The notes under the pieces were generated by a model. It saw nothing but the letters and a program-made list of their open reading frames with translations, had not been told where the DNA came from and searched no databases. From assembly GCA_963764715.1 (NCBI GenBank), contig CAVXTP010000021.1, positions 192,001 to 256,000 of the forward strand: a stretch of 64,000 nucleotides of DNA. The letters are read 5' to 3'. Of the stretch, positions 1-38,823 are shown piece after piece. This stretch comes from an uncultured Acidobacteriota bacterium (GTDB taxonomy: Bacteria; Acidobacteriota; Thermoanaerobaculia; UBA5066; Gp7-AA6). The position numbers were made by a program, and so were the translations under genes. Within the stretch, counting starts at the first letter, position 1. Each line of letters opens with the position of its first letter.

Positions 1-2578
1 CGGGCGCGAGGTCGCGATCAAGGTGCTTTCGGAGAAGGTCGCGGGAGACCCGGCGGCGCTCGCCCGGTTCGAGCGCGAGGCGCGCGCGGTCGCGGCTCTG
101 TCGCATCCGCACATCCTCGCGCTCCACGACTTCGGCCAGGACCGCGGGCTCACCTTCGCCGTCATGGAGCTGCTCGACGGAGAGTCCCTCGCGCAGCGGC
201 TGGCCCGCGGGCCGATGCCGGCGAGCGAGATCGCGCTGGCGGGAGCGCAGATCTGCGGCGCGCTCTCCGCGGCTCACCGCAAGGGGATCGTGCACCGGGA
301 CCTGAAGCCCGCCAACGTGATGCTGACGAAGTCGGGCGTGAAGCTGCTCGACTTCGGCCTCGCCAAGGCGGTGAGCGAGGTTCCCGAGGGCCTGACCACG
401 GAGCAAACCGCGGCGGCGGACGTCACCCGCGAAGGGACGATCATCGGCACCCTCGCGTACATGTCGCCCGAACAGGTCGAAGGCCGCGCGGCCGACGCCC
501 GCTCGGACATCTTCGCCCTGGGCGCGACGCTCTACGAGATGGCGACGGGCCGGAAGGCGTTCGTGGCGTCGAGCCAGGCCGGCCTGATTTCCGCGATCCT
601 CTCGGGCGAGCCACCGCCGGTCTCGTCGGTTCAGCCGATGTCGCCGCCGGCGCTCGACCGCATCGTGCGCGGCTGCCTCGCCAAGGACCCCGACGCGCGC
701 TGGCAGACCGCGCACGACGTGGGTCTGCAGCTGGCGGGCCTCGGGGATTCCGGGACGGCGGCGACGCCGGTGGCTCGGACGTCGGTGCGGCGCGGCCGCC
801 GCCTCCTGCCGTGGGCCCTGGCCGGGCTCTTCGCCGTGCTGGCCGCCGTCGTGCTCTGGAAGGGGTCCTCGCCCCCGGCGCCCGCCCGCATCGTTCGGTT
901 CCCGCTGCCGCCCCCTCCCGGACGTTCCTTCTTCACGACCTACGAATCGGTCACCGTCGCCGTCTCGCCGGACGGCTCGCGAATCGCTTATGTCTCGGCG
1001 CCCTTCGCCGTGTCCGCAGCCCGCCGCGGCATTGCTTCGCCCGAAGCTCCGGAGAACCGCAACATCTGGGTTCGCGACCTGGCGGCCCTCGAGTCCCGGC
1101 CCGTGCGCGGAACGGAGGGCGCCACGTCCATCTTCTGGTCGCCCGACGGCAAGTCGCTCGGCTTCTTCGTTCCGGGAAAGCTCAAGCGCATTTTCCTGGC
1201 GGACGGCGCGGCCGCCGTGCCCATCTGCGACGTACCGGCCGGGGGCGGCCGGGCCGGCACCTGGAGCCCGTCCGGGGAGATCCTGTTCGCGAGCATTCAG
1301 GCGCCGACCGTTCTGAAAGTGGCCGCATCCGGCGGCGTTCCGGAGAAGGCGTTCGAAATCGCCGGCGACGAGATCCGGATCAACTGGCCGTCGTTCCTGC
1401 CGGACGGGAAGAGGTTCGTCTACCTCGCGAGACTGCGCGATCGCACGGGCCGATTGATGCTCGGCGAGCTCGGCAAGCCCCCCCGCGTGGTGGCGCCGTT
1501 GACCTCTTCGATGCAGTACGTCGACCCGGGCTACCTCGTCTTTGCCCGGGATGGAGCGCTGCTCGCGCAACGGTTCGACCCGGAAGCCGGGCGTCTGACG
1601 GGCGACCCCGTCTCGATCGCCGACCCCGTCAGCTACTTCCTGTCCACCGGGCGAACGTCCTTCGCCATCTCGCGCTCCGGAACTCTCGTCTACCAGTCGG
1701 CCGACGACGTGAGCCGGCTCGAATGGTTCGATTTGGCCGGTCAGTCTCTCGGGAGCATCGGACCTCCCGGCAACTACCTCAATCTGGCGATGGACCGCGA
1801 AGGAGTCAGGGTTTTCTACGACCGGACGCGGCCCGGCATCGGTACTTTCGACATCTGGGCATGGGATCTCGTCCGCGGCATCGAGACGCCGATCACGACG
1901 GAAACCGATACCGAGATATCGCCGGTCGAGCTGGCCGACGGCAAGAGCATCATCTACTCCGCCAATCGCCAGGGAGCGCCAGAGCTCTTCCGCCGGAACC
2001 TCGCCAGCGGCACCGAGGCGCCTCTGGCGCCTGCCCAGAACGCGTTTCAGCAGGCGCAGGATCTGTCGCCGGACGGACTGACCCTGGCCTACGTGGAGCG
2101 CGCGTCGTCGGGGAACTTCGACATCTGGACCGTTCCGGTGTCCGGAACCGGGAAGCCATCGTCCTTTCTGCAGTCGGACTTCGACAAGAAGGAAGTGCGG
2201 TTCTCGCCGGACGGCCGTTACCTCGCCTTCGTGGCCAACGACTCGGGACAGCCCGAGGCCTACGTGACGCCCTTTCCTGGTCCGGGGGAGAAGGTGCGGC
2301 TTTCCTCGGGCGGGGCGCGCCTGCTCCAATGGAGCCGCGACGGACGCGCCCTGCTTTACGTGTCCCCCGACGGGCGGATGATGTCGCTGCCCGTCCAGAC
2401 CAGCCCGTCCCTTCGGACCGGGACGCCGACGGCGCTCTTCACGATCCCGGGCCGAGCGTGGCTGAACTTCCGGCTCTCGAACGATGGGAAAAAGATTCTC
2501 GCCGTGGTGCCCGAGTCCGCCGCCGACGAGCAGCCGATGACGGTCGTCGTCAACTGGCCGGCCACCCTCGCGAAGTAG
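1..2578 (+). CDS. Receptor-like Ser/Thr kinase K1 (kinase-TM-TolB/PD40 beta-propeller), 5'-truncated by the window edge
   Basis: Reads ..REVAIKVL from the edge; HRDLKP, DFG, YMSPE motifs; hydrophobic LLPWALAGLFAVLAAVVLW; repeated SPDG blades; C-terminal TVVVNW. Confidence 0.93.
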   Translation, partial: GREVAIKVLSEKVAGDPAALARFEREARAVAALSHPHILALHDFGQDRGLTFAVMELLDGESLAQRLARGPMPASEIALAGAQICGALSAAHRKGIVHRDLKPANVMLTKSGVKLLDFGLAKAVSEVPEGLTTEQTAAADVTREGTIIGTLAYMSPEQVEGRAADARSDIFALGATLYEMATGRKAFVASSQAGLISAILSGEPPPVSSVQPMSPPALDRIVRGCLAKDPDARWQTAHDVGLQLAGLGDSGTAATPVARTSVRRGRRLLPWALAGLFAVLAAVVLWKGSSPPAPARIVRFPLPPPPGRSFFTTYESVTVAVSPDGSRIAYVSAPFAVSAARRGIASPEAPENRNIWVRDLAALESRPVRGTEGATSIFWSPDGKSLGFFVPGKLKRIFLADGAAAVPICDVPAGGGRAGTWSPSGEILFASIQAPTVLKVAASGGVPEKAFEIAGDEIRINWPSFLPDGKRFVYLARLRDRTGRLMLGELGKPPRVVAPLTSSMQYVDPGYLVFARDGALLAQRFDPEAGRLTGDPVSIADPVSYFLSTGRTSFAISRSGTLVYQSADDVSRLEWFDLAGQSLGSIGPPGNYLNLAMDREGVRVFYDRTRPGIGTFDIWAWDLVRGIETPITTETDTEISPVELADGKSIIYSANRQGAPELFRRNLASGTEAPLAPAQNAFQQAQDLSPDGLTLAYVERASSGNFDIWTVPVSGTGKPSSFLQSDFDKKEVRFSPDGRYLAFVANDSGQPEAYVTPFPGPGEKVRLSSGGARLLQWSRDGRALLYVSPDGRMMSLPVQTSPSLRTGTPTALFTIPGRAWLNFRLSNDGKKILAVVPESAADEQPMTVVVNWPATLAK

Positions 2579-2580: not shown

Positions 2581-3150
2581 CTACTTCGGGGCGACTTCGT
2601 TCTTGGCGCCGGGCGGGGGCGGGTACTCGGCCAGCAGCTCCGAAACCGCGCGCCGGATGTCCCTGGCGATGGCGTCGGGGTTCGTTCCGAGAAGGGTCGA
2701 CTTCAAGCCGCGCCAGACGAGCTTGTATCCGGTGTCGCGGACGTCGATGTACAGCGTGCCTTCCTTTCGGTACTTCGTGCCTGCCCAGATCGTCCCGCTC
2801 CACCAGCTGTAGGCCCCGAACCGGTCCTGGGATTCCACGCCGTCCGGCCGCGTCGTGTACGAGACGTAGATGTCGGGCGCCTGGCCGGTCACGACGGGGT
2901 GGACGCCCCTTTTCAGAAGCGTTTCGTCGATCGCTTGGCGGACGGTCTCGTCGACGAAACGGCCGTCGACGATGGAGCTGCCTCCGGGCATCTGGAAGTT
3001 CGGGTCTTTGTACCAGGCGTAGGTCTTCGGCTGGGTGAACGTGTACGCCGGGTCGAAGGCATAGTGATAGCTCGGCGCGCCCGCGCACGCGAACTGAAGG
3101 GCGCCGAGCGCGCAGGCAGCCAGGGCGAGATGGCGGCGATGGTTATTCAT
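2581..3150 (-). CDS. DUF4136-like lipoprotein
   Basis: ATG at 3150 overlaps the upstream TGA (ATGA); signal peptide ending QFAC; KTYAW, EGTLYIDVRD..KLVWRG, LLAEYPP. Confidence 0.8.
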   Translation of the reverse strand: MNNHRRHLALAACALGALQFACAGAPSYHYAFDPAYTFTQPKTYAWYKDPNFQMPGGSSIVDGRFVDETVRQAIDETLLKRGVHPVVTGQAPDIYVSYTTRPDGVESQDRFGAYSWWSGTIWAGTKYRKEGTLYIDVRDTGYKLVWRGLKSTLLGTNPDAIARDIRRAVSELLAEYPPPPGAKNEVAPK

Positions 3151-3710
3151 GGCGTTCCATTCGTGGGAGCCGCGCCCGGCGGGGGCGGGAACTTGGCGAG
3201 CAGCGCGTCGATCTCGTGATGGATCTCGCGGCCGGCGGCATCGGGATTTTCCCCCTCGAGCCGGGTGATCGAGCCGCGCCAGATGAGCTTCTTGTCCGCC
3301 GTGCGGAAGTCGATCGTGATGGCCCGCGACTTCTCGTACATCATGCTTTCGTACCCCGTCAGCCAGGCGTAGTTGGGGTCCTTGACCTCGTCGCTCACGC
3401 GCGTGTCGCCGGTCAGAAACGCGACGAGCAGCGAGGCGCGTGCGGGGTCGACCTTCTGGTAGCCCTTTCCCGCGAGGCTCGCGTCGACGGCGGCGTGGAC
3501 GTGCTGCGAGATGAACTCGCCGTCGATGATCGAGTCGCCGTGGGGCGGCGGGTAGCCCGGCCCGACCCACCAGGCGTAGGTCTTTGCCGCCGCGAAGTCC
3601 GCCGTCTTGTCCCAGGCGAACTGGGGCACCGGGTGCGTTCCGCGGCACGCGGCGACGCCGATCACGCCGGCGACGAGAAGCAAGGACGGGCGTCGCAAGG
3701 TCCGGGTCAT
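3147..3710 (-). CDS. DUF4136-like lipoprotein (tandem paralog)
   Basis: Lipobox VAAC; [29 protein letters not shown]; GAAGGAG RBS upstream. Confidence 0.8.
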
Positions 3711-3771
3711 GTTCGCTCCTTCGAGGGTGCGGGGACATTACACCATGCGCGGGATCGCATACTCTTGCCCC

Positions 3772-5136
3772 GTGGGCGCCGGCCAGCGGGCGCCGGGGCC
3801 CCCGCGGCGTTATCCCGGCAGTCACCTCTTCGCGCTCCGCCGCGACCCTCTCGCGTTCCTGACGGGGATCGCCCGCGAGCACGGCGACGTCGCGCGCTTT
3901 CGTCTCGGGCCGGTCGACGTCCACCTGGTCAGCCGCCCCGACTGGATCCGGGACGTGCTCGTGACCCACGCCCACCTCTTCCACAAGGGCCGGGGCCTCG
4001 AGCGCGCGAAGCGTCTCCTGGGCGAGGGCCTGCTGACGAGCGAAGACCCGATCCACCTGCGCCAGCGGCGGATGATGCAGCCGGCCTTCCACCGCGACCG
4101 CATCGCCGGTTACGCCGGCGTGATGACGGCGCACGCCGAGGCGATGAGCGCGCGGTGGCGCGACGGCGAAACGCGCGATCTCGCCCAGGAGATGTCGCGG
4201 CTGACGCTCTCGATCGTCGGCCGGACGCTCTTCGATTCCGAAGTGGAGTCGGAGGCCGACGAGATCGGCGCCGCGCTGACCACCGCGATCCAGCTCTTCG
4301 GCCGGACCTTCTCGCTGCCGTTCTTCCAGGTCGTCGACCGTCTGCCGCTGCCCTCGAACCGGCGGTTCGCGAAGGCGCGCGCCCGGATCGACGCGACCAT
4401 CGGGCGGCTGATCGCGGAGCGGCGGCGTTCGCCGGGGGGACGCTCGGACCTGCTGACGCTGCTCGTCCAGGCGAGCGACACGGAGGGCGACGGCACCGGC
4501 ATGACCGACGTGCAGGTGCGCGACGAGGCCGTGACCATCTTCCTCGCGGGCCACGAGACGACGGCCAACGCGCTGACCTGGACCTGGTACCTCCTCTCGC
4601 AGAACCCCGAGGCCGAGGCGAGGCTGCACGCCGAGGCCGACGCGCTCGACGGCACCCCCGGGTTCGCCGACCTCCCGAAGCTCGCCTACACGGAGATGGT
4701 CTTCGCCGAGTCGATGCGCCTCTTTCCTCCGGCCTGGATCATCGGCCGGCGGGCGATGGCCGACTACGCGGTCGGCGGTTACGTCGTCCCGAGCCATTCG
4801 ATCGTCGTTTGTAGCCAATGGGTGACGCACCGGGACGCCCGTTTCTTCCCGGATCCCGAGCGGTTCGATCCGGAGCGTTTCCGCCCGGAAGCGAAGGAGC
4901 AACGGCCGAGATTCGCCTACTTCCCGTTCGGCGGGGGCCCTCGGGTCTGCATCGGCGAGGGGTTCGCGTGGATGGAGGGCGTCCTCCTGCTCGCGACTCT
5001 CGCCCGGCGGTGGCGCCTCCGGCTCGCGCCCGGTCATCCCGTCGTCCCCGCGCCGTCGATCACGCTGCGCCCGGAGCACGGGATGCGCATGCGGATCGAG
5101 TCGCGTTCTTCGACCGTTCCGGGACCGTTGTTGTAG
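3772..5136 (+). CDS. Cytochrome P450
   Basis: AGHETT I-helix, ESMR (ExxR), [16 protein letters not shown] heme ligand. Start is GTG 3772 (preceded by TACTCT-N6) or ATG 3745. Confidence 0.95.
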
Positions 5137-5258: not shown

Positions 5259-7916
5259 ATGAGCCTTGCCGCGGGAACACGCCTGGGGCCCTACGAGATC
5301 GTGGCGCCGATCGGGGCGGGCGGGATGGGGGAGGTTTACCGGGCGAAGGACACGCGTCTGGACCGGCAGGTGGCGGTGAAGGTTTTGTCGTCGCACCTGT
5401 CGGCGAGCGAGGAGGTGCGTCAGCGGTTCGAGCGGGAGGCGAAGACGATTTCGCAGTTCTCGCACCCGCACATCTGCTCGCTGTACGACGTGGGTCGGGA
5501 GGGCGAGACCGACTACCTGGTGATGGAGCTCCTCGAGGGCGAGAGCCTTGCCGACCGGCTGGGCAAGGGCGCGCTTCCGACGGAGCAGGTCCTGCGGTAC
5601 GGGATCGAGATCGCGGACGCGCTCGACAAGGCGCACCGCCAGGGGATCGTGCACCGGGACCTGAAGCCCGGCAACATCATGCTGACGAAGACGGGCGTGA
5701 AGCTGCTGGACTTCGGTTTGGCGAAGCCGCTGACGGCGGCGGGGGCGCGGCCCGTCTCGGGCGCCTCGGTCCTCGCGACGGAAGCCCAGGTGAGCCAGCC
5801 GCTGACCGAGCGCGGGACGGTGCTGGGGACGTTCCAGTACATGGCGCCCGAGCAGCTCGAGGGCGGCGAAGCGGACGGCCGGTCGGACATTTTCGCGTTC
5901 GGCGCGGTGCTGTACGAGATGGCGACGGGCAAGAAGGCGTTCACGGGCAAGAGCCAGGCGTCGCTGATCGGATCGATCCTGCGGGACGAGCCGCCGTCGA
6001 TCTCGGAGGCGGCGCCGATGATCCCGCCGGCGCTGAACCGCGTGGTGAAGACGTGCCTGGCGAAGGACCCGGAGGACCGGTTCCAGACGGCGCACGACGC
6101 GAAGCTGCAGCTCGAGTGGATCGCGGAGGGCGGCTCGCAGGCGGGGCTGCCGGCGCCGGTCGTCGCGCGGCGAAAGAACCGCGAGAAGCTCGCGTGGGCC
6201 GTCGCCGCGGTCGCCCTGCTCGCCGCCGGCCTCGCCACCTGGGGCTGGTTCCGCCGCGCGCCGGTCCCGCCCCTGATGGCACGTTTCGACATCATGTCTC
6301 CGGAGGATCTCGTGGCGATCGACATGCCGCGCGTTTCTCCCGACGGACGCACCATCGCGTTGAACGCGACGGACGCCGCCGGAAGAACCCGAATCTGGAT
6401 CCGGCCGTTGAACTCCCTGACGGCGCATGCGCTGGAGGGGACCGAGGGAACGACTCGTCCCTTCTGGTCGCCGGACTCGCGCTTTATCGCTTTTTTCTCC
6501 GAGGGCAAGCTGAAGAAGGTGGACACCTCCGGCGGTCCACCGCAGAAGATCTGCGACGCGCCGACCGGCGCCGACGGCTCGTGGAGCTCGGAGGGCGTAA
6601 TTCTCTTCGACGGCGTCACCGGGGATCCCATCCAGCGGGTTGCCGCCACGGGCGGAACCCCGGTCGTCGAGGTCAAGCCCGACCCGGCGCGCAAAGAAAC
6701 CCAGGTCGCCTGGCCGGAGTTCCTGCCCGACGGCCGCCACTACATCTATCTGGCGAGCGGCCAGAAACCGGAAGACAACCTCTACCGCATCGGCTCGCTC
6801 GGCTCGAAGGAATCGACACCGATGGCGTCCGCACAGACGCTTCTCAGCTATGCGGCGCCCGGATACATCCTCTTCGTGCGTGACAAGACTCTCGTCGCGC
6901 AGCGCTTCGACCTGAAGAAGCTCAAGACGATCGGCGAACCGGCCCCCGTGGCCGAGAAGATCGGCACGGATGCCGTGGGTCTCGCTCGCTTTTCGGTGTC
7001 CCGCAACGGCGTCCTCGCCTACCGCACGGGCGATTCCGGAAATCGACTGCTCTGGATGGATCGCGGCGGGAAGGAGCTCGAGACGGCCGGCGCTCCCGGC
7101 GACTACGGCAATCCGGCGTTGTCCCGCGCGGGAGACCGACTCGCGTTCAACGCCTCGGATCCGCGCAGCGGGAAGTTCGACATCTGGGTCCGGGACCTCG
7201 CGCGCGGCGTGAACTCGCGCTTCACGTTCGCCGCCGGCGTCAACATCTGCCCACTGTGGTCTCCGGACGGCTCCCGAATCGTCTTCACTTCGGAAAAGGA
7301 GGGCGCATCCAGTCTCCTCGAGAAGGCGTCCACCGGCCAGGGAGAGGAGAAATCGCTCCTCAAGAGCACCGACGGACGCGTCCTCGCCACCGATTGGTCG
7401 CGCGACGGGAAGTACATCGCCTATTCGCATCGGGGAAAGGAGGGCTGGGACATCTTCGTTATGCCGACCTCGGGCGACCGCAAGCCGATTCCCGTGGTTC
7501 AAACTCCGTTCAACGACCTGAATGCCACGTTCTCGCCCGACGGCCGATTCATCGCGTACCAGTCGAACGAGTCCGGGCGCGGCGAGGTCTACGTCCAGAC
7601 CTTTCCGGATCCCGGGGGCAAATGGCAGATCTCGACGGCGGGCGGCTTCGACGCGTCGTGGCGGGCGGACGGCAAGGAGATCTTCTTCCGCGCTCCCGAC
7701 CAGAAGCTGATGGCGGTGGACGTCCAGACCGCCGGGAACTTTCAGGCCGGCATTCCGCACCCGCTGTTCCTGGGTCGCATTCCCCCCGGCGCATCGCGCA
7801 ATCGGTACGCGCCGGCGGCCGACGGGCAACGCTTCCTCTACATCGCGCCGCTCGGGCGCGAGTCGATGACTCCGACGACGGTGATCCTCAACTGGTTCGA
7901 AGGGCTGGAGCACTGA
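5259..7916 (+). CDS. Receptor-like Ser/Thr kinase K2 (kinase-TM-beta-propeller)
   Basis: [29 protein letters not shown]; TM LAWAVAAVALLAAGLATWGW; SPDG repeats; VILNW. Confidence 0.95.
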   Translation: MSLAAGTRLGPYEIVAPIGAGGMGEVYRAKDTRLDRQVAVKVLSSHLSASEEVRQRFEREAKTISQFSHPHICSLYDVGREGETDYLVMELLEGESLADRLGKGALPTEQVLRYGIEIADALDKAHRQGIVHRDLKPGNIMLTKTGVKLLDFGLAKPLTAAGARPVSGASVLATEAQVSQPLTERGTVLGTFQYMAPEQLEGGEADGRSDIFAFGAVLYEMATGKKAFTGKSQASLIGSILRDEPPSISEAAPMIPPALNRVVKTCLAKDPEDRFQTAHDAKLQLEWIAEGGSQAGLPAPVVARRKNREKLAWAVAAVALLAAGLATWGWFRRAPVPPLMARFDIMSPEDLVAIDMPRVSPDGRTIALNATDAAGRTRIWIRPLNSLTAHALEGTEGTTRPFWSPDSRFIAFFSEGKLKKVDTSGGPPQKICDAPTGADGSWSSEGVILFDGVTGDPIQRVAATGGTPVVEVKPDPARKETQVAWPEFLPDGRHYIYLASGQKPEDNLYRIGSLGSKESTPMASAQTLLSYAAPGYILFVRDKTLVAQRFDLKKLKTIGEPAPVAEKIGTDAVGLARFSVSRNGVLAYRTGDSGNRLLWMDRGGKELETAGAPGDYGNPALSRAGDRLAFNASDPRSGKFDIWVRDLARGVNSRFTFAAGVNICPLWSPDGSRIVFTSEKEGASSLLEKASTGQGEEKSLLKSTDGRVLATDWSRDGKYIAYSHRGKEGWDIFVMPTSGDRKPIPVVQTPFNDLNATFSPDGRFIAYQSNESGRGEVYVQTFPDPGGKWQISTAGGFDASWRADGKEIFFRAPDQKLMAVDVQTAGNFQAGIPHPLFLGRIPPGASRNRYAPAADGQRFLYIAPLGRESMTPTTVILNWFEGLEH

Positions 7917-7917
7917 G

Positions 7918-10578: not shown

Positions 10579-10582
10579 TTCG

Positions 10583-13237: not shown

Positions 13238-13258
13238 GACGGTTTTGAAGGAGTCTCG

Positions 13259-15916: not shown

Positions 15917-15934
15917 CCCGCGTCCCGACCACGT

Positions 15935-15969
15935 TTGATGGTAATCATGATGGTAGAATCAATGCCATG
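15935..15969 (+). promoter_or_regulatory. Putative extended -10 promoter and operator of vapBC
   Basis: TG-G-TAGAAT at 15951-15959, 7 nt before ATG 15967; TGATGGTA direct repeat; imperfect inverted repeat ATGGTA-N7-TGCCAT. Confidence 0.6.
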
Positions 15970-16239
15970 AGAACAACCATCGACCGTGCCGGAAGGCTCG
16001 TGCTGCCCAAGCCGATCCGCGACGCCGCCGGCCTCGTCCCGGGCGCGGAGCTCGAAATTCGCCTCGCCGACGGACGGATCGAGATCGAGCCCGCGCCGCT
16101 CGAGGTCCGGCTCGTCAAGCGCGGCTCGCTGACGGTCGCCGTTGCGCGCAAGCGCGTCCCGCCGCTGACCGCGGAGGCCGTGCGAAAGACGCTCGACGGC
16201 CTCCGCCGCCGGGGCGCCGACATGACCCGAGTCGAGTGA
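15967..16239 (+). CDS. vapB: AbrB/MazE/SpoVT-fold antitoxin (VapB)
   Basis: MRTTIDRAGRLVLPKPIRDAAGL..GRIEIEPAP; from memory resembles mycobacterial VapB40; GTGA overlap with the PIN gene. Confidence 0.9.
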   Translation: MRTTIDRAGRLVLPKPIRDAAGLVPGAELEIRLADGRIEIEPAPLEVRLVKRGSLTVAVARKRVPPLTAEAVRKTLDGLRRRGADMTRVE

Positions 16240-16676
16240 ACTCGTACCTCCTCGACACGAGCTGCCTGGTCGCCGCGGTTTGTGAATGGCATCGCCATCA
16301 CGAGGCGACGCGCAAGGAGATCGAACGCCGTGCTGCAGCCGGTGAGACGCCGACGCTGGCGGCCCACGCGCTCGCCGAAGCCTATTCGGTCCTGACGCGC
16401 CTGCCCGATCCCCACCGCCTGCGTCCGGACGACGCGCTCGCCGTGTTGGAGGCCAACTGGAGCGAGACCCGGCTCGTCGCGCTCGGACCTGCGGACTACC
16501 GGTCGACGCTTCGCCGCTGCCGCGACGCCGGGATCGGCGGCGGTGCCGTCTACGACGCCCTGATCGCGTCGTGCGCCCGGAAGGCGCGCGTGGCGACTCT
16601 CGTCACCTGGGATGTCGGCGCCTTCGAGCGCTTTCTGGACGATGAGCCGGCCGTGCGGACACCGGAGGCCCGATGA
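16236..16676 (+). CDS. vapC: PIN-domain ribonuclease toxin (VapC)
   Basis: LLDTSCLVA, AHALAEAYSVLTRLP, GGAVYDALIA, LVTWD acidic PIN residues. Confidence 0.92.
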   Translation: MNSYLLDTSCLVAAVCEWHRHHEATRKEIERRAAAGETPTLAAHALAEAYSVLTRLPDPHRLRPDDALAVLEANWSETRLVALGPADYRSTLRRCRDAGIGGGAVYDALIASCARKARVATLVTWDVGAFERFLDDEPAVRTPEAR

Positions 16677-16744
16677 CGCTGACTCGGACTCGAGGCGGCC
16701 CGCTGCGCGGGCCGACGGACGAGAGAGGGAAAGTCGCTTTGTGA
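16673..16744 (+). other. Coupled mini-ORF (23 aa) starting like a kinase gene (MTLT..), probable remnant
   Basis: ATGACGCTG overlaps the vapC TGA, with GGAGG at 16664-16668; matches kinase starts ATGACGCT(C/G). Confidence 0.45.
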
Positions 16745-16766
16745 AACATCTCCCGAGAAATCTCAC

Positions 16767-30019: not shown

Positions 30020-32692
30020 ATGACGCTCGCCGCCGGAACCAAGCTCGGCCCCTACGAGATCCTGGCGCCCCTCGGCGCGGGCGGGATGGGGGAGGTCTAC
30101 AAAGCGCGCGATACGCGGCTCGAGCGGATGGTGGCGGTGAAAGTGCTGCCGGAGCGGCTGGCGGAGGACGCCGACGCGCTGGCGCGGTTCGGGCGCGAGG
30201 CGAAGGCCGTCGCGGCGCTGTCGCACCCGAACATCCTCGCGATCCACGACTTCGGGCACGAGGGCAGCGTCGCTTACGCCGTGTCCGAGCTTCTCGAAGG
30301 GGAGACGCTGCGCGAAGCGCTGGCGTCCGGACCGCTGTCTTCCCGCAAGGCGAGGGAGTACGGAGTGCAGATCGCGCTGGGCCTCGCCGCGGCGCACGAG
30401 AAGGGGATCGTCCATCGGGACCTGAAGCCCGACAACATCTTCGTGACGCGGGACGAGCATCTGAAGATCCTCGACTTCGGGCTCGCGAAGCCGGGCGCGG
30501 GGCCCGCGACGGCTCGCGACGAGACGCAGTCCCCGACGGTGTCGGGCTACACGGAGCCGGGCAAGGTCATGGGGACCGTCGGCTACATGTCGCCGGAGCA
30601 GGTCCGGGGCATGGCGGTCGACCACCGGTCCGACATTTTTTCTTTCGGGGCGGTGCTGTACGAGATGCTGACGGGAAGCCGCGCGTTTCAGCGGGAAACC
30701 GCGGCCGAGACGATGACGGCGATCCTGAAGGAGGACCCGCGGGAGCCGTCGTCGGTGGGGGCGGACGCGGCGGCGCTCGTCCCGGTGCTGCGGCACTGCC
30801 TGGAGAAGAAACCCGAGAAGCGGTTCCAGTCGGCGAGGGACCTCGCGTTCGCCCTGGAGACGGCGGCCGGCACAACGGGCTCGGCCGCCGTCGCGGCCGT
30901 GCCGCCGCCGCCGCTCTCGGCTGCGCTCGGGAGGTGGCTCGGTGTCGCGGCCCTCGTCGCCGCCGCGGCCGCCGCCGGTTATTTCTTCCGTCCCGGCCGC
31001 GCCGCATCGCCAGAGCCGGACTGGAGCGAGGCGACGATCGCGCCGCTGACGACCGATCCCGGCTACGAAGGGGAGCCGACGTTCTCTCCCGACGGGCAGA
31101 CGATCGCCTACGTCTCCGACCGCGACGGGAACTTCGAGATCTACCTGCAGCAGGTCGCGGGCGGCCCGGCGCTCAATCTCACGAACAACCCGGCCGCGGA
31201 CATCCAGCCCGCGATTTCTCCCGACGGCCGCGAGATCGCCTTCGTCTCGAATCGTTCGGGCGGCACGGACATCATGCACGCGGCCCCCAAGCTGCCCGTC
31301 GTCGGGGGCGACATCTGGGTGATGCCCGCCCTCGGGGGCCCGGCGCGCCGGATCGTTGAGAACGGGAATTTCCCGTCCTGGACACCGGACGGCGCGAACC
31401 TCGTCTACGTTCACGGCACGTTTCGGAATGTGCGAATCGCGATCGTGCCCGCGGCGGGCGGGGAGAGCCGCGACCTGCCGATCGAGGAGCCGTTCGTTCT
31501 CCGCTATTTCTTTCCCAGCATCTCGGAGGACGGAAAGTGGCTCCTCTACCAGAACGGCCACCAGGTCGAGGTCGTCCCCGCGGGAGGCGGAAAGCCGAAG
31601 GAACTCGCCCGGGGCGAGGCGCCCGCGTGGTGGCCCGGTTCGACGAGCGTCCTTTTCACCAGCAACACGCCCGGCAAGGGCCGGAGCCTCTGGAGGGCGC
31701 CGTTCTCGCTCGCGCGCGGCGAACTCTCGGGGCGGCCGCGGCCGCTGACCTTCGGGCGCGGCGCCGACCTCGGAGCGAAGGTCTCGCGGGACGGAAAAAC
31801 GATCGCATTCTCCGCCGTGGAGGAGAGCCTCAACCTCGAGGAGATTCCTTTCGATGCGGAGGCCGGTCGCGTGACCGGCCCGTCCCGGGAATTGACCGCC
31901 GGAAGCAACCGGGTGGGGTTCTTCGATGTCTCGCCGGATGGGAAGGCGGTCGTCTTCGAGGCGGAGCGGGGCGACCGGTCGCATCTCTGGCGTATCGATC
32001 CGCCCGCGCCTCCGGTCGAGCTGACACGGGACCCGGGCTATTCGGATACCTTCCCCGAGTGGTCGCCCGACGGCCGCGACATCGCGTTCTCGCGGGGGAC
32101 GGGTGGTACCGCCGAGGGCGCCCAGTCGCTCTGGATCATGCGGGCCGACGGCACCAACCCTCGGCGGCTCGGCGACTTCTCCGGACAACTGGTCTGGCTG
32201 CCGGATCGGAAGGCGATCGTCCAGCGCGGCCAGTCCATGGTGCGGCTGGATCTCGACTCCGGCGTCACCACCCCCGTCACGCAGGGCAAAGTCATCACTC
32301 TCCTCGCCGCCGATCGCGAAGGGAAGTGGTTGGCGTACCAGACCTCCGAGGGGAGTGCGATGAGGCTCGCGGCCATGCCGGTGACCGGCGGTCCCTCGCG
32401 TCTCGTCTCGACCGCGGGATACGACGCTTACCATCCGCTCTTTTCGCCCTCCGGCCGCTGGATCTACTTCCAGCCCGCTCACAAGAACCTGTACCGGGTG
32501 CCCGGTCCCGCGCAGGACTGGGCGACGGCCGACCCTCAGAAAGTGACGGACTTTTCGGGGCACGATCTCTACATCGAAAACCCCAGGATCACGCGCGACG
32601 GCTCAAAGCTCTTCTACACGCGAGGGCGAAGGACGGGGGATATCTTCATCCTTCGCCTCGGAGCGACGCCGGAAACGAAACCGGCTCGATGA
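30020..32692 (+). CDS. Receptor-like Ser/Thr kinase K11 (PD40-rich ectodomain)
   Basis: Kinase motifs; TM; [23 protein letters not shown] canonical PD40 repeats. Confidence 0.95.
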
Positions 32693-32724
32693 CGTCGTGC
32701 TGGAAAAACGGGAGGCTGAGATGA
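32689..32724 (+). other. Coupled mini-[14 protein letters not shown] bridging K11 and the M14 gene
   Basis: ATGA overlaps at both ends (32689-32692 and 32721-32724); starts ATGACG like the kinase genes. Confidence 0.4.
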
Positions 32725-33788
32725 TCCAGAGGACGCTCTGCGCCGCGATCGGAGTGCTCGTCGGCTGCGTCTGCTCGGCCGCGGGAGCGGGACAGACGCC
32801 GTTCGCCGTCGGGACGGCTTCCGCGAATCCCGGCCAGAAGTCGACCGGGGTTCTCGCGGTCCCCGCGGGCGCCGACGCGGCGCTCGACATCCCCGTCGCC
32901 GTCGTCCGGGGGGCGCGGCCAGGCCCGGTGCTGGCCCTCGTCGCCGGCGCGCACGGGACCGAGTACGCCTCGATCATCGCGATCGAGCGGCTGATCGAGA
33001 CGCTCGACCCGGCCGCGGTGTCCGGCACGGTCATCCTGGTCCCGCTCGTGAACACGCCGTCTTTCGAGCAGAAGGTCCCGCACGTCAATCCGGTGGATGG
33101 CAAGAGCATGAACCGTTTCTATCCCGGCAAGGCCGACGGGACGCAGACGGAGCGGGCTCTTCTTCTGATCACGCGGCAGATCGTCGAGCGGTGCGACTAC
33201 CTGATCGACTTTCACGGCGGCGACCTCGACGAGGATCTGCGGCCCTACAGCTACTGGCTGAAGACCGGAACCGAGAAGCAGGACGCCGCTTCGCGCCAGA
33301 TGGTCCTGGCGTTCGGCCTCGGCACGATCATCATCTCCGCCGACCGGCCGACGGATCCCGGCGCGTCGCGCTATCTCGACAGCACCGCGTCGACCCGAGG
33401 CAAGCCGTCGATCACCGTGGAGGCGGGCCATGCGGGAACCGTCGACCCCGCGGACGTGTCGGCCCTCGTCGACGGGACACTTTCGGTCATGCGGCTGCTC
33501 AAGATGCTGCCCGGAACGCCCGCGATGGTGGATCACCCGGTCTGGATCGAGTCGATCAAGACCGTCGCGAGCGAGCAGACCGGAATCTTCTATCCGCTCG
33601 TCGCCAGCGGAACCTACGTCGCGCAAGGGATGAAGCTCGGGTACGTCACGGACTACGTGGGCCGGAAGGTGTTCGAGGCCCGCGCGCCGGAGGCTGGCAT
33701 CGTGCTCTACATCTGCGCCGTGCCCTCCATGAAGAAGGGCGACACGATCGCCAACATCGGCGTCGTGGCCGCTTCGCCACCGCCATGA
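32721..33788 (+). CDS. Secreted succinylglutamate desuccinylase/aspartoacylase family (M14-like) metallohydrolase
   Basis: GGAGG RBS; signal peptide; GAHGTE (HxxE), MNR, DFHGG, TVEAG. Confidence 0.9.
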   Translation: MIQRTLCAAIGVLVGCVCSAAGAGQTPFAVGTASANPGQKSTGVLAVPAGADAALDIPVAVVRGARPGPVLALVAGAHGTEYASIIAIERLIETLDPAAVSGTVILVPLVNTPSFEQKVPHVNPVDGKSMNRFYPGKADGTQTERALLLITRQIVERCDYLIDFHGGDLDEDLRPYSYWLKTGTEKQDAASRQMVLAFGLGTIIISADRPTDPGASRYLDSTASTRGKPSITVEAGHAGTVDPADVSALVDGTLSVMRLLKMLPGTPAMVDHPVWIESIKTVASEQTGIFYPLVASGTYVAQGMKLGYVTDYVGRKVFEARAPEAGIVLYICAVPSMKKGDTIANIGVVAASPPP

Positions 33789-33853
33789 GTCTCGCTGCGG
33801 CGCCCGTCACGCTGGCGACGAACTGGACCCGGGAGCTGGAGAGGAAGAAATGA
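33785..33853 (+). pseudogene. 22-aa in-frame deletion remnant of a receptor kinase gene (MSLAAAPVTLATNWTRELERKK)
   Basis: First residues match kinase starts (MSLAA in K2); the rest matches kinase C-termini (PMTVVVNW.. K1, [15 protein letters not shown]10); ATGA overlaps at both ends. Confidence 0.75.
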
Positions 33854-35277
33854 GATTCCGCAGGAGTGTTCTCGTTGCGTTCGGGGTGGTGTTCGTGAGC
33901 GCCTCGGCCCGCGCCCAGGACGTCCCGGCCCGCATCGCCGGCGCCGCGCTGACGGGCGGCGGTGCCTCGGCCTTTCTCGAGAAGCTGACCGACTCGGTCG
34001 GAGGCCGTGTGACGGGGAGCCCGGAGCTGCGCCGCGCCTCGGAGCTGATTCTGGCGGAGCTGAAGCAGGCGGGCTACGCCAACGCCCGCTTCGAAGAGTC
34101 CCCGCTCGAGTCGCGGTGGTCGCGCGGACCGGCGTCGGGCCGGATCACGTCCCCGATCGATCGGGCGATCACGATCGGGTCGTATGCCTGGGTCCCGGGC
34201 ACGGCGGGACCGGTCGGGACGCCGCTCGTCGACATCGGCGCCCCGGCGTCGAACGCGCTGCCCGTGCCGGCCGAACGCGTGCGCGGTGCGGCCGTTCTCG
34301 TCGACCCGCAGAAGATCGGCGTCGATCCCTCCTTCGTTTCCCGCGCGGCCCTGGCGCGGGCCCTCGCCGAGGCGGGCGCGGTCGCGATGCTCATCCCGTC
34401 CGACAAGCCCGGACGGATGGTGTACACGTCGGCCTTCGGCTTCTATCCGAGGGCGCCGCTTCCGGTCATTTCCGTCGGGAAGGCGGATGCGCTGCTGCTG
34501 CGGCGGCTCCTCGCGAAGGGCCCGGTGAAGCTTTCCCTCGACGTCCGGAACTCCTTCGACACGAGCCCCTACCTCGAGCGCAACGTGATCGCGGATCTGC
34601 CGGGCCGGGACGCCTCCGAGATCGTCCTGCTCGGCGCGCACTACGACTCCTGGGACCCCGCCGAGGGAGCCGACGACGACGGCTCGGGCGTGGCCGCCGT
34701 GCTCGAGGCGGCGCGGATCCTGAGGTCGCTCGGAATCCAGCCCCGGCGGACGATTCGATTCGCGTTCTTCTACGGCGAAGAGGAAGCGACGCTCGGCTCG
34801 CGCGCCTACGTCGCGACACACGAGAAGGAGCTCGATGCGCTCAAGGCCGTCCTGGTGATGGACTCCGGCGCCCAGGCGCCGAAGGGCGTCGAGCTCCACG
34901 GACGGGCAGACCTCGAGGCGCCGATGAGAAGGGCGCTCCGATCCGTGGCGTCCCTGGGCGCCTCGTCGACCACGCTCGAGGCGAGCTTCGACCGCGACCA
35001 CGGGCCGTTCATGGTCGTGGGCGTCCCGGCGATGACTTTGTGGGTCGAGCCGGGAACATACGACGACCGCCACCACACGGTCATCGACACGTTCGACGGC
35101 GTCGATCCGCACTGGCTCGCCGTCGACACGGCGGTGATGGGGATTTTGGCGTGGGAGCTGGCGAACGGCCCGGAACCGGTCGGCCGCCGCCTCTCGCCGA
35201 CGGAAGCCGATGCCCTCCTGAAGGGCTCTGGCGTCGAGGGGACGAAGCGCATGGTCTACGGCGCCTCACCGCGCTGA
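33850..35277 (+). CDS. Secreted M28 family metallopeptidase (carboxypeptidase Q-like)
   Basis: Signal peptide; GAHYDSW, ADDDGSG, GEEEATLGS, HHTVID. Confidence 0.92.
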   Translation: MRFRRSVLVAFGVVFVSASARAQDVPARIAGAALTGGGASAFLEKLTDSVGGRVTGSPELRRASELILAELKQAGYANARFEESPLESRWSRGPASGRITSPIDRAITIGSYAWVPGTAGPVGTPLVDIGAPASNALPVPAERVRGAAVLVDPQKIGVDPSFVSRAALARALAEAGAVAMLIPSDKPGRMVYTSAFGFYPRAPLPVISVGKADALLLRRLLAKGPVKLSLDVRNSFDTSPYLERNVIADLPGRDASEIVLLGAHYDSWDPAEGADDDGSGVAAVLEAARILRSLGIQPRRTIRFAFFYGEEEATLGSRAYVATHEKELDALKAVLVMDSGAQAPKGVELHGRADLEAPMRRALRSVASLGASSTTLEASFDRDHGPFMVVGVPAMTLWVEPGTYDDRHHTVIDTFDGVDPHWLAVDTAVMGILAWELANGPEPVGRRLSPTEADALLKGSGVEGTKRMVYGASPR

Positions 35278-35292
35278 GGAGGAGGGCATCCA

Positions 35293-35805
35293 ATGACGAC
35301 CTACACGACGATTCTGGAAGAGGCCCTCGAGGCCTGGGAGTACACGCGGCGGGGCGTGATCGACGAGCTCCGCAACCTGCCCGAGAAGAGCATGGCGTTC
35401 CGCCCCTCGCCGGAGGGCCGGACGGTGGGCGAGCTCGCGCGGCACATCGTCGAGTCCGGGCTGCTGATGTCCGGGGAGCTGTCGCAGCGGGACGGCGACT
35501 TCCGGCGCAAGAGCTACGAGGCGCTCCTGCGGGAGCACGGCCGGGGCGTCGCGCGCCTGACGACGCGGCGGGCCCTGCTCGACGGGCTCGCGCGGAAGCA
35601 TCGCGACGGGGAGCGAGCCCTGCGGAAGGCGGGAGAGCTCCACATGCTCCAGAACATCCGGCGTTTCGACGGAAAGTACGGGACCCGGCTGGCCTGGATG
35701 CAGCACGGGATCTCGCACGAGGAATATCATCGCGGGCAACTCGCGCTCTACGCGCGCCTTCTCGGCCGCGTTCCGGCGCTCACGCAATTGATCATGGGAG
35801 GTTGA
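35293..35805 (+). CDS. DinB family protein
   Basis: GGAGG RBS; RTVGELARHI and HEEYHRGQL motifs. Confidence 0.9.
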   Translation: MTTYTTILEEALEAWEYTRRGVIDELRNLPEKSMAFRPSPEGRTVGELARHIVESGLLMSGELSQRDGDFRRKSYEALLREHGRGVARLTTRRALLDGLARKHRDGERALRKAGELHMLQNIRRFDGKYGTRLAWMQHGISHEEYHRGQLALYARLLGRVPALTQLIMGG

Positions 35806-35807
35806 CG

Positions 35808-36488
35808 ATGCGAGGATCCCGGATCGTTCGGATCGTGGCTCTCTCGGGCGCGGCGGTCGCCGCCGTCGCCATCGCGCAGGTCCAGACGAAGGAGTCGCAG
35901 GCGGCAATGACCCCGGCGGCGGCGCTCGCGCGCCTCAAGGAGGGAAACGCGCGGTTCGTCTCGGGGCAGCTCAAGCCCCGCGACTTGAACGCGAAAGTCA
36001 TCGCCACGGCGTCGGGCCAGTACCCCTTCGCGGCCGTCCTCTCCTGCATGGATTCGCGGGCGCCGGCGGAGATCGTCCTCGACCAGGGCATCGGCGACAT
36101 GTTCAGCCTGCGCTCGGCGGGCGACGTCGTCGACACGGACGTCCTCGGAGGCCTCGAGTACGCGACGAAGGTCGTGGGGGTGAAGCTCGTCGTCGTCCTC
36201 GGCCACACCGAATGCGGGGCCGTCAAGGGAGCGATCGACGGGGTCAAGCTCGGCAATCTGACGGCGCTGCTCGCGAAGATCCAGTCGGCCGTTCGCGATT
36301 CGGGGCCGGGGACCTCGAAGGACAAAGATTACGTGAAGAAGGTCACCGAGCAGAACGTGCGGGACTCGATCCACGAGATCCGCGAACGGAGCTCGATCCT
36401 GCGCGGCCTCATCGATTCCGGGCAGGTCGGCATCGCCGGCGCCCTGTACGACGTTTCCACGGGGACCGTGACGTTCATGGCGGACTGA
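35808..36488 (+). CDS. Exported beta-class carbonic anhydrase
   Basis: GGAGG RBS; signal peptide; LKEGNARF, CMDSR, GHTECGAV zinc ligands. Confidence 0.93.
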   Translation: MRGSRIVRIVALSGAAVAAVAIAQVQTKESQAAMTPAAALARLKEGNARFVSGQLKPRDLNAKVIATASGQYPFAAVLSCMDSRAPAEIVLDQGIGDMFSLRSAGDVVDTDVLGGLEYATKVVGVKLVVVLGHTECGAVKGAIDGVKLGNLTALLAKIQSAVRDSGPGTSKDKDYVKKVTEQNVRDSIHEIRERSSILRGLIDSGQVGIAGALYDVSTGTVTFMAD

Positions 36489-36528: not shown

Positions 36529-38823
36529 GTGACGCTCGCGGCACGTACGCTCGGACCCTACGAAATACTCGGCCCCCTCGGCGCGGGCGGGATGGGGGAG
36601 GTCTACCGTGCGCGCGACCCGCGGCTCGAGCGCGACGTCGCGGTCAAGGTCCTGCGGGGCCTTTCGCACGGCAGCCCCGATGCGATCGCCCGATTCCAGC
36701 GCGAGGCGCGGGCGGTCGCCGCACTGTCGCACCCCAACATCCTGGCGATCCACGACATCGGAGAGGCGAATGGCGTGGCGTACGCCGTCATGGAGCTTCT
36801 CGAGGGGGAGACCCTTCGCGGACGGCTCGCCGCCTCCGCGATTCCGGCCCGGAAATCCGTCGAGTACGCGCTGCAGATTGCGCAGGGGCTCGCCGCGGCT
36901 CATGACCGCGGGATCGTCCACCGGGACCTGAAGCCCGAGAACGTCTTCCTGACGCAGAACGGCCTGGTCAAGATTCTCGACTTCGGCCTGGCGGTGCTGT
37001 CCACGCCGGGCTCGTCGGCCGACCTTTCGCAATCGCCGACGGTCGGTACGCAGCCGGGGGTCGTCCTCGGCACGCCGGGCTACATGTCGCCCGAGCAGGT
37101 ACGCGGCCGTCCGGTCGACCACCGCACCGACCTCTTCGCCCTGGGCGCGATCCTCTACGAGATGCTGACGGCCAAGCGGGCCTTTCGCGGGGACAGCCCG
37201 GCGGAGGCCATGATCGCCGTCCTTCAAGAGGACCCGATGTCCTCCCCGACGGGCACGCAGATCACTCCGGAGCTCGCCCGGATCATTTCGCACTGCCTCG
37301 AGAAGGAGCCCGGGGAGCGGTTCCAGAACGCCCGCGACTTCGCCTTCGCGCTCGAGGCGCTCCAGGTCGAGTCCTCCGCTCCCGGGACGGCGGCGGTCTC
37401 GGGCTCGGGCTTCGGGCCGGCGGAGGCCTCGATCGCGGTCCTCCCGTTTCGCAACATGAGCGCGGACCGCGAGGCCGAGTACTTCAGCGACGGGATCACG
37501 GAGGAGATCATCAGCGCCCTGGCGGGCCTCGAGGCGATGCACGTCGCGGCGAGGACCTCCTCGTTCGCCTTCAAGGGCAAGGACACCGACGTGCGGCAGA
37601 TCGGCCGCGACCTCGGCGTCCGCACTGTCCTCGAGGGAAGCGTGCGGCAGGCGGGGCGCCGCATCCGGATCACGGCGCAGCTCGTGGACGTCGCGAGCGG
37701 CTACCAGCTGTGGTCCGAGCGCTTCGACCGGGAAATGGAAGACATCTTCACCGTCCAGGACGAGATCGCGCGCGCGATCGCGGCGACGCTGAAGGTGCGG
37801 CTCGCGGCGCAGTCGGGGGCGGCGGTCGGGGCGCCGCCGAACCGCGACCTGGTGGCCTACGACTCGTACCTGAAGGGCCGGTTCGACTGGAGCCTGCGGC
37901 GCATGCCGTCGGCCGTGGCGCACTTCCGCGCCGCGGTGCAGCGGGACCCGGATTACGCGGCGGCGCACCTGGCCCTCGCGGATTCGTACGCGGTGTGGGG
38001 CTTCTACGGGGGCCTGCCCTGCTGGGAAGCGTTCGGCCGCGCGCGCGTGGCGGCCGAGAGCGCGGCGCGCCTCGAGCCCGATTCCTCCGGCGTCCACCTG
38101 TCCTTCGGCATCATCGAGCACTACTACGGCTGGGACACGGCGCGGGAGGAGCAGGAGCTGCGACAGGCGGCCGACAAGGATCCGCGGTCGGCGGATCCTC
38201 ACACCTGGCTTTCCCTGTGCTGGGCGGTCAGCGGGCGCTTCGAGGACGCGTTGGAGGCGGGACAGGAAGCGGTCCGGCGGGAGCCGCACTCGGCCAACGC
38301 CCGCGCGGTGCTCGGCTGGTCGTACGCCGGGTCGCGGCGATGGGCGGAATCCATCCCGATCCTGGAAAAGGCCGTCAGTCTCGAGCCCGACGCGGCCTTT
38401 CCCCGGTGGTCGCTCGGGCTCGCGCAGCGCTACGGGGGTCGACTCGACGAGGCGATCGCGACGCTCGAGACGGCCGTGGGATCCACGCGCCGCGAGCACA
38501 CGTATCAGCTCGGCCTCTACTGCGGCGCCCTGGCGGACGCCGGCCGCACGGCGGAGGCCCGCGCGATCCTCGCGGAACTGGAGGACCGGTCCCGCCGGAC
38601 GTACGTCCCGCCGTACGACCTGGCGATCTCGTACGTCGGCCTGGGCGAGAGGGAGAAGGCGATCGACGCGCTGGAGCGGGCCTTCGACGAGCGCAACGGG
38701 TTGATGTGGTACCGGATCCACAAGCCGATGCTCGACCCGCTGCGCGACGAGGCCCGCTACCGGGCGATCGCCGAAAACCTGGCCCGGCGGGCGCCGGTCG
38801 CGGACGCCGTCCGCGGATCGTGA
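36529..38823 (+). CDS. Ser/Thr kinase K12 with TolB_N-like module and TPR repeats (no evident TM)
   Basis: Kinase motifs; SIAVLPFRNMS..EYFSDGITEEII module; helical TPR-like C-terminus. Confidence 0.92.
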   Translation: MTLAARTLGPYEILGPLGAGGMGEVYRARDPRLERDVAVKVLRGLSHGSPDAIARFQREARAVAALSHPNILAIHDIGEANGVAYAVMELLEGETLRGRLAASAIPARKSVEYALQIAQGLAAAHDRGIVHRDLKPENVFLTQNGLVKILDFGLAVLSTPGSSADLSQSPTVGTQPGVVLGTPGYMSPEQVRGRPVDHRTDLFALGAILYEMLTAKRAFRGDSPAEAMIAVLQEDPMSSPTGTQITPELARIISHCLEKEPGERFQNARDFAFALEALQVESSAPGTAAVSGSGFGPAEASIAVLPFRNMSADREAEYFSDGITEEIISALAGLEAMHVAARTSSFAFKGKDTDVRQIGRDLGVRTVLEGSVRQAGRRIRITAQLVDVASGYQLWSERFDREMEDIFTVQDEIARAIAATLKVRLAAQSGAAVGAPPNRDLVAYDSYLKGRFDWSLRRMPSAVAHFRAAVQRDPDYAAAHLALADSYAVWGFYGGLPCWEAFGRARVAAESAARLEPDSSGVHLSFGIIEHYYGWDTAREEQELRQAADKDPRSADPHTWLSLCWAVSGRFEDALEAGQEAVRREPHSANARAVLGWSYAGSRRWAESIPILEKAVSLEPDAAFPRWSLGLAQRYGGRLDEAIATLETAVGSTRREHTYQLGLYCGALADAGRTAEARAILAELEDRSRRTYVPPYDLAISYVGLGEREKAIDALERAFDERNGLMWYRIHKPMLDPLRDEARYRAIAENLARRAPVADAVRGS

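Follow-up and report, generated by a model that had tools for sequence, protein, structure and literature searches.

Acidobacteria are among the most abundant bacteria in soil, and a stretch of DNA from an uncultured Acidobacteriota bacterium of the class Thermoanaerobaculia raises the question of what kind of sensory system is formed by receptor-kinase genes lined up one behind another, and how such a line of genes evolves. The window analyzed here is the whole stretch of 64,000 nucleotides (nt), positions 192,001 to 256,000 of contig CAVXTP010000021.1 (C21:192001-256000 of the source genome, G000). A sequence-only reading had described in it eleven co-oriented genes encoding a protein kinase, a transmembrane (TM) segment and a beta-propeller, together with a gene encoding a kinase with TPR repeats, and had proposed a diversifying receptor repertoire comparable to the receptor-like kinase (RLK) clusters of plants. 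Taken as a whole, including its mechanism and a birth-and-death mode of evolution, the locus is probably best explained as part of an array of 15 genes, approximately 50 kb long, that encode bitopic receptor Ser/Thr kinases of the Hanks type. The array is real and dynamic, and is a new member of a known, phylum-wide receptor-kinase family; on present evidence there is no indication of a new kind of system.

The source genome (4.36 Mb in 26 contigs, 96.8% complete, approximately 70% G+C) contains 75 Pkinase matches, 15 of which lie within the approximately 50 kb formed by the kinase part of the window and its left extension; these 15 share the plus strand. Matches distributed evenly over 4.36 Mb would number about 0.9 in such an interval, and the clustering of kinases at this locus exceeds chance. 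A Pfam scan of the long plus-strand open reading frames (ORFs) at curated cut-offs (31.7 bits for Pkinase, 20.9 bits for PD40), with starts set from a strongly conserved N-terminus (MxLxxGxxLGPYEI), recovered all eleven propeller genes and the kinase-TPR gene where they had been described. These are K1 (<1-2578; 892 amino acids (aa), its start codon 100 nt to the left of the window), K2 (5259-7916; 885 aa), K3 (7917-10578, ATG at 7918, delimited by alignment to K2 and to an orthologue in the related genome G012), K4 (10583-13237), K5 (13259-15916), K6 (16767-19427), K7 (19424-21985), K8 (21982-24618), K9 (24629-27316), K10 (27313-30006), K11 (30020-32692) and the kinase-TPR gene K12 (36529-38823). 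Pkinase scores are 131-177 bits in the eleven kinase-PD40 genes (for K3, in the kinase-frame piece) and in K12, which also has a TPR match, and PD40 is above its cut-off in 11 of 11 kinase-PD40 genes, from 44.9 bits in K8 and 45.5 bits in K7, the weakest, to 149 bits in K11. Each of the 11 intact genes, like the kinase piece of K3, has the G-loop, the (I/V)K lysine and the HRDLKPxN and DFG motifs, as the sequence-only reading had stated for the catalytic residues. In addition, a single hydrophobic segment at approximately residue 300-330 was found in 13 of 13 kinases scanned, namely the ten intact kinase-PD40 genes of the window and the three genes of the left extension.

The junctions between the genes are as tight as had been described, with 4-nt overlaps (GTGA or ATGA) at K6/K7, K7/K8 and K9/K10 and short gaps at K2/K3 (1 nt), K3/K4 (4 nt), K4/K5 (21 nt), K8/K9 (10 nt) and K10/K11 (13 nt). 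A promoter scan returned no promoter-like site, and terminator-like sites were no more common than in shuffled sequences, with none at the intergenic junctions. When sequencing runs were searched for positions 7001-17000, no RNA run containing the locus was listed, and the best DNA run contained at most 0.23 of the words. The suspicion that the array continues beyond the left edge of the window proved correct, as three further kinase genes occupy C21:180764-189091: the kinase-TPR gene g12 (C21:180764-183172) and the kinase-PD40 genes g13 and g15 (to 189091). Both ends of the array are thus kinase-TPR genes, g12 on the left and K12 on the right. The kinases of the left extension are interleaved with an OsmC gene (g14), ispG (GcpE) and a ferredoxin-type gene. 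The ispG gene, an essential isoprenoid gene (g16; C21:189104-190543), lies on the opposite strand, embedded within the kinase array; it is 89-96% identical in relatives, yet its place among the kinases shifts.

One member does not fit the description of the array as a row of intact genes. In the assembly, the frame of K3 is broken by three 1-nt insertions that K2 and the orthologue in G012 lack, two near 7930-7941 and one at 8572, so that the kinase core is out of frame both with the start codon and with the TM-sensor part. In a short contig from soil-metagenome run X1, at a depth of 4.3, precisely the first two of these extra bases are missing, which restores MSLSPGTRLGPYE; the contig bears on those two bases only, and no confirmed metagenome contig spans 8572. 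K3 is therefore either a recent pseudogene or the product of assembly errors. A frameshift common to K3 and G012, suspected from equal open-frame lengths, was discarded, the G012 orthologue being intact. Elsewhere in the genome, kinase genes split into two frames each were observed at C9:83791-84574, C23:1177-1960, C15:31775-32558 and C14:102898-105775; indels would then be a not uncommon error of this assembly, unless several copies of the family are decaying. It is highly improbable that the array itself is an artefact of repeated kinase segments mis-joined or collapsed during metagenome assembly. Even though K2 and K3 share approximately 400 nt at 99% identity and two of the three odd insertions of K3 are missing from the related metagenome contig, the other paralogue pairs do not exceed 90% protein identity, short contigs from independent runs show 0-1 differences to parts of the locus, and arrays of the same kind lie on long contigs between the same flanks in five other genomes.

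These five genomes of the same genus (G013, G016, G017, G011 and G006) show how the locus changes. The flanks are syntenic in all of them, on the left from g04 to g11 and on the right from g36 to g45 (with K12, an MFS transporter, aminotransferases and an aldehyde dehydrogenase), and the flanking proteins are mostly 70-95% identical. Between the flanks there are 15 kinase units in the source genome, 15 in G013, 14 in G016, 12 in G017, 11 in G011 and at least 11 in G006, and the order and content of the kinases differ as well, as the position of ispG illustrates. The sequence-only reading had proposed a comparison of copy number and gene order across relatives, and both were found to vary. Some sensors have orthologues, with best matches of 95% for K4 and 90% for K9 (both in G013), 89% for g13, 79% for K11, 76% for K1, 74-77% for K10 and 73-88% for K5 in four genomes. 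Others lack a sensor orthologue in the five loci, where the best matches reach at most 40% for K6, 33% for K8, 49% for K7 and 56% for g15. The K2 sensor is 62% identical to its positional counterpart in G013 (best match 63-65%), the kinases of the same two genes being 97% identical. Many kinase copies of G013, G016 and G017 are split over several frames, and the few contigs and low estimated completeness of these genomes fit long-read indel errors. The array is a birth-and-death hot spot between conserved flanks, in which copies are gained, lost and rearranged among congeners.

Within the array, kinase sequences are conserved to a far greater degree than ectodomains, which bears out the variable sensors of the original proposal. 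Amino acid identities of kinase and ectodomain are, respectively, 90% and 62% for K4/K5, 87% and 32% for K8/K9, 83% and 45% for g15/K9, 82% and 42% for K2/K10, and 71% and 19% for K7/K11. K2 and K3 agree in 97-99% of their DNA over nt 75-375 and in 88-97% as far as approximately nt 900, after which identity falls to approximately 70% in the sensor; so sharp a break indicates gene conversion or partial duplication. The histories of the two halves also differ. In the kinase tree the adjacent genes K8 and K9 are sisters (support of 96 in the Shimodaira-Hasegawa-like approximate likelihood ratio test, SH-aLRT), whereas in the sensor tree K9 is sister to g15 with a support of 100. A sensor tree in which K8 and K9 were forced together was rejected (log-likelihood difference 75.8; approximately unbiased (AU) test, p 0.001), and a clade of the K8, K9 and g15 sensors was not rejected (p 0.27). 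Moreover, a single kinase clade of eight rows (K6, four genes of C1 and three of C23; SH-aLRT 99) bears three different sensor classes. From the sequences compared, this conflict between the trees points to gene conversion and module shuffling. On this reading, conversion has homogenized the 5' kinase modules of neighbouring genes, these modules have been joined anew to at least four classes of sensor, and the individual sensor modules are old. A more specific candidate, K9 as a recombinant of two G013 genes, was rejected: the K9 kinase DNA is 86.4% identical to that of the G013 gene bearing the sensor orthologue and 70.5% to that of the other.

The sensor classes were defined from a maximum-likelihood tree of the ectodomains of 35 full-length paralogues, in which four classes are recovered, each on a branch with SH-aLRT of 97-100. 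Class A comprises K1, K2, K4, K5, K6, K8, K9, K10, g13 and g15, class B comprises K7 and the array on C1, class C is represented by K11, and class D contains TPR sensors such as that of g12. An AlphaFold2 model was built for the K2 ectodomain only (550 aa, alignment of 45 rows); it is all-beta with approximately 46 strands (mean predicted local distance difference test score, pLDDT, 90.6; predicted template-modelling score, pTM, 0.82), and its top Foldseek matches are double-propeller proteins and TolB. Residues 256-532 of the model superpose on 13 TolB entries with Z of 26.6-29.8 and a root-mean-square deviation (rmsd) of 2.3-2.6 Å over 243-257 residues at 17-20% identity. The whole model aligns with the tandem propellers of LRP6 with Z of 20-22 and a large rmsd, the latter indicating that the geometry between the propellers differs. 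We read the modelled K2 ectodomain as a pair of propellers in tandem, of which the second belongs to the six-bladed TolB type; a propeller ahead of it is suggested by the arrangement of strands, the PD40 matches and the double-propeller alignments.

The array kinases are not members of the named families that they resemble, as none of the NCBIfam equivalog models reached its cut-off. TIGR02800 for TolB scored 29-148 bits against a cut-off of 343, and with the TolB N-terminal domain absent the sensors are not TolB proper. The PknD equivalog NF009651 (145-170 bits against 839) and the PknB/Stk1 PASTA model NF033483 (290-328 bits against 450) matched the kinase domain only, and there was no Pfam match to PASTA. 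The architecture is nevertheless that of PknD, with a kinase, a single TM helix and an extracytoplasmic propeller, the topology being predicted. The structural likeness also bears on another explanation of the locus, in which lipoproteins of the outer membrane, or peptidoglycan, would be the docking partners of the propellers, as Pal is of TolB, and the kinases would report envelope integrity or growth. The top structural matches are TolB and TolB-Pal complexes, and two of the four genes for DUF4136 lipoproteins in the genome lie inside the array. However, the lipoprotein link comes from one locus, TolB-model scores of 116-148 bits against 343 and the missing N-terminal domain set the sensors apart from TolB, and dozens of diverged sensors are hard to square with a single envelope signal. 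We consider such envelope monitors improbable.

A further explanation, closest to the original proposal, is that of an immune-like repertoire whose propellers are under positive selection to track phage, competitors or metabolites, in the manner of plant RLK clusters and nucleotide-binding leucine-rich repeat (NLR) gene clusters. In its favour are the far greater divergence of sensors than of kinases among paralogues, the variation of copy number and order between congeners, the lack of orthologues of K6, K7, K8 and g15 in the five related loci and the presence of a VapBC module within the array. The substitution patterns tell against it. The ratio of nonsynonymous to synonymous substitution rates (dN/dS) was calculated by the Nei-Gojobori method for seven orthologue pairs, six against G013 and one against G017. 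Kinase values are 0.04-0.28 and those of the sensor 0.17-0.32, compared with 0.07-0.34 (dS 0.22-0.63) in nine flanking genes. As the sensor values lie within the range of the flanks, the sensors are somewhat less constrained than the kinases yet under ordinary purifying selection, and no gene-wide diversifying selection was detected on orthologous sensors in the seven pairs. Several sensors are 75-95% conserved between species (80-95% for K4, K9, g13 and K5), and "diversifying" in the sense of positive selection was not upheld. Among paralogues, dN/dS approaches 1 only where dS is saturated, and for distant paralogues this saturation makes the ratio uninterpretable. Large paralogous kinase sets without positive selection have precedent in Solibacter, according to the available part of the report (PMC3174227).

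The suggestion of phage or non-self sensing was likewise not borne out by defence-gene models. PADLOC matches (PD-T4-6, MAD6, Stk2 and PglW) span approximately residues 1-330 only, that is, the generic kinase domain, and the PD-T4-6 match was for this reason dismissed as a sign of defence. The NCBIfam defence kinases are far below their cut-offs (MAD6, 148-172 bits against 460; PglW, 63-87 bits against 990), Pfam scans of the window showed no partner gene of BREX or MADS systems, and the locus contains no other defence genes. An immune-like repertoire is thus unlikely. What the array maintains is a stable set of distinct sensors, combined with a kinase chassis that can be exchanged; it is neither a hypervariable nor an arms-race locus. 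The synonymous divergence of the two halves is in line with exchange, as kinase dS is below sensor dS in five of the seven pairs and above it in two (K9 and K4), and differences in both directions fit mosaic histories. For K4, a sensor dS of 0.11 to the G013 orthologue (C2, approximately 487297-489952) was observed, lower than in all nine flanking genes; it hints at a recent exchange between lineages.

How such receptors may work can be proposed largely by analogy. Each PD40-type gene would encode a cytoplasmic, catalytically complete kinase, one TM helix and a periplasmic sensor. A periplasmic ligand, possibly a peptide or protein and possibly an envelope component, would bind the propellers; binding would bring about receptor dimerization and trans-autophosphorylation, as for PknD; the active kinase would then phosphorylate cytoplasmic targets, for instance FHA-domain proteins of the genome, and PP2C phosphatases would reset the signal. 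In the available part of the PknD study, the stimuli of that kinase are given as unknown, its sensor is a beta-propeller, and dimerization activates it allosterically (PMC1847690). An N-in topology and ligand-driven dimerization with trans-autophosphorylation are what we infer for the array from this analogy. The window itself has no FHA (PF00498) or PP2C_2 (PF13672) match, these being the two profiles searched, in agreement with the sequence-only reading that no such partner is encoded there; nine FHA and two PP2C_2 matches are found in the genome outside the window. Two FHA genes, C24:13200-13391 and C9:83376-83528, are the immediate upstream neighbours of kinases of the family (C24_10380_13034 and the split kinase C9:83758-84783, respectively), and from their position these kinase-adjoining genes are candidate phospho-dependent partners. 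A peptide or protein is the best guess for the ligand, the basis being the peptide and Pal binding of TolB (from titles of solved complexes), weak matches to S9/DPP-IV propellers, and peptidase-type neighbours of the array (S10, M28 and a deacylase of the AstE/AspA family).

Several points weigh against the overall reading of the locus as a birth-and-death array of recombining receptor kinases. The G006 contig begins inside the array, so its count is a lower bound, and possible long-read frameshifts meant that units rather than intact genes were counted. The group submitted to the AU test was picked after the identity matrix and the kinase tree had been viewed, and for the sensor tree there were warnings of long branches and of composition. 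The paralogues are near saturation at synonymous sites, with 90% G+C at third codon positions (GC3), and the baseline codon identity at identical residues is itself higher in the kinase (57-70%) than in the sensor (40-60%), against which the synonymous codon signals of 77% versus 60% for K4/K5 and 70% versus 55% for K8/K9 are to be read. Given this saturation and baseline, the case for gene conversion is unequivocal in K2/K3 alone; for K4/K5 and K8/K9 the sequences do no more than suggest it. Finally, dimerization and FHA targets are borrowed from the mycobacterial kinases and would hold here only by analogy, and the peptide or protein ligand is guessed only from the fold likeness to TolB and S9 peptidases and from the neighbouring peptidases.

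Beyond the birth-and-death array, a bolder idea may be put forward tentatively, as possible though doubtful. The kinase, homogenized and exchangeable, would serve as a "constant" module, and recombination at the juxtamembrane/TM boundary would pair it with members of a library of old, individually conserved TolB-like double-propeller "variable" modules. New pairings would arise via unequal crossing-over among neighbouring genes, and the birth-and-death locus would provide combinatorial sensing of periplasmic peptides or proteins as a counterpart of eukaryotic receptor-gene clusters. If it were true, soil Acidobacteria would possess a combinatorial sense for the peptides and proteins of their periplasm.

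The family to which the array belongs extends well beyond the window. In the genome, the N-terminus MxLxxGxxLGPYEI is carried by 42 kinase units, so that one receptor-kinase family accounts for 42 units in a genome with 75 kinase matches, and further runs of the family occur on C1 (seven) and C23 (approximately seven). A search with K2 gave at least 30 scored matches in each of 31 genomes, consisting of the source genome and 30 relatives of the same genus or order (including the unpublished G024). The K2 sensor alone, at E <= 1e-20, matched in 68 of 151 sampled Acidobacteriota genomes, a sample that includes the unpublished G054, and in 57 of 106 genera, the open frames of these matches being mostly 880-950 aa long. 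The matches across relatives and across the phylum sample show that the family is phylum-wide and not peculiar to the window. Public contigs with close relatives of K2 (66 loci) are titled as metagenome-assembled genomes of Thermoanaerobaculia or Acidobacteriota, with a minority titled Vicinamibacteria, Polarisedimenticolia or Candidatus Eisenbacteria. On C23 (35068-40296, minus strand), a single stop-free frame of 1742-1751 aa was observed that holds two complete kinase-propeller units in tandem, which would reflect either two neighbouring genes fused by read-through or the loss of a stop codon.

Other genes are interspersed with the kinases or adjoin them. The interval between K1 and K2 holds two minus-strand DUF4136 genes, half of the genome's total of four, and a cytochrome P450 gene. 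The first DUF4136 gene is lipoprotein-like (2581-3130, end approximate; the match, at the C-terminus of a long minus-strand ORF, corresponds to C21:194617-195063), the second lies at 3147-3710 (62.6 bits), and the P450 gene on the plus strand at 3607-5136 (E 7e-79), its true start probably being downstream of 3607. DUF4136 lipoproteins were considered as partners of the array and set aside, with only four in the genome, two of them here and none in its other arrays, and with g14 being an OsmC gene. DUF4136-like ORFs of 37-41% identity were also seen within the arrays of G013, G011, G016 and G006.

K5 and K6 are separated by a plus-strand pair with gaps of 53 and 90 nt, consisting of a VapB-like antitoxin gene of the MazE/AbrB fold (15970-16239; MazE_antitoxin, 37.4 bits) and a gene for a VapC-like PIN-domain toxin (16236-16676; 48.5 bits). 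The two overlap by 4 nt and both exceed their Pfam cut-offs, which is the layout of a VapBC module; the VapC subfamily model TIGR00028 scored 45 bits, below its cut-off of 73.6. No VapBC homologue was found among the ORFs listed in the five syntenic loci, a listing of ORFs of at least 100 aa. To the right of K11, and likewise on the plus strand, are the AstE/AspA-family deacylase gene, matched by AstE_AspA_cat and beginning 4 nt past the K11 stop (32697-33788), an M28 aminopeptidase gene (33850-35277; Peptidase_M28, also placed by synteny), a DinB-family gene (35278-35805) and a beta-carbonic anhydrase gene (36031-36488, start approximate; Pro_CA match at residues 640-785 of the ORF 34116-36488). 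The M28 homologue follows an intact kinase gene by 4 nt in G011, overlaps the end of a kinase ORF in G013 and is found at the right end of the array in G017 and G016. Further to the right, the window contains very long plus-strand ORFs with CarboxypepD_reg matches and C-terminal S-layer homology (SLH) matches (52405-60703).

The array offers a clean natural case of bacterial receptor-kinase evolution, combining tandem duplication, loss, gene conversion between neighbours and re-assortment of modules. Its propeller ectodomains, of which that of K2 is confidently modelled and several have conserved orthologues, also provide a concrete set of sensors for ligand screening.

Among known systems, PknD of Mycobacterium tuberculosis has the same order of parts, with an N-terminal Hanks kinase, a single TM helix and a C-terminal extracytoplasmic beta-propeller. 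PknD has one six-bladed NHL propeller and is a single gene, whereas the K2 model has two tandem propellers of the PD40/TolB type and the kinases described here stand in a 15-gene array. TolB shares the PD40 repeats, and its propeller is the one on which the second K2 propeller superposes; K2, by contrast, lacks the N-terminal domain of TolB, and its propeller occurs twice and is joined to a kinase and a TM helix. The tandem RLK clusters of plants are alike in their co-oriented tandem receptor kinases, conserved kinase domains, diverged ectodomains and changing copy number. They differ in their leucine-rich repeat (LRR) or lectin sensors, unrelated to propellers, and the array differs from them in showing no gene-wide positive selection and in its operon-like packing with 4-nt overlaps. 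For PknD, as by analogy for the array kinases, activation by dimerization may serve as the working model (available part of PMC1847690). A search of the open-access literature for kinases of Thermoanaerobaculia and for acidobacterial kinases in tandem arrays returned nothing specific. PD40 is named as one of the most frequent partner domains of prokaryotic Ser/Thr kinases (PMC2877116, in the part available), and an expansion of kinase paralogues in Candidatus Solibacter usitatus Ellin6076, likewise a large acidobacterial set without positive selection, is described in the accessible part of PMC3174227. With the tethering of PD40 to kinases and the acidobacterial expansion both known, the locus belongs to a known kind. 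The accessible parts of these two reports do not describe tandem arrays, the dynamics of a locus between species or the exchange of kinase and sensor modules; what is added here to that known kind is a documented case of locus dynamics and of exchange between kinase and sensor modules.

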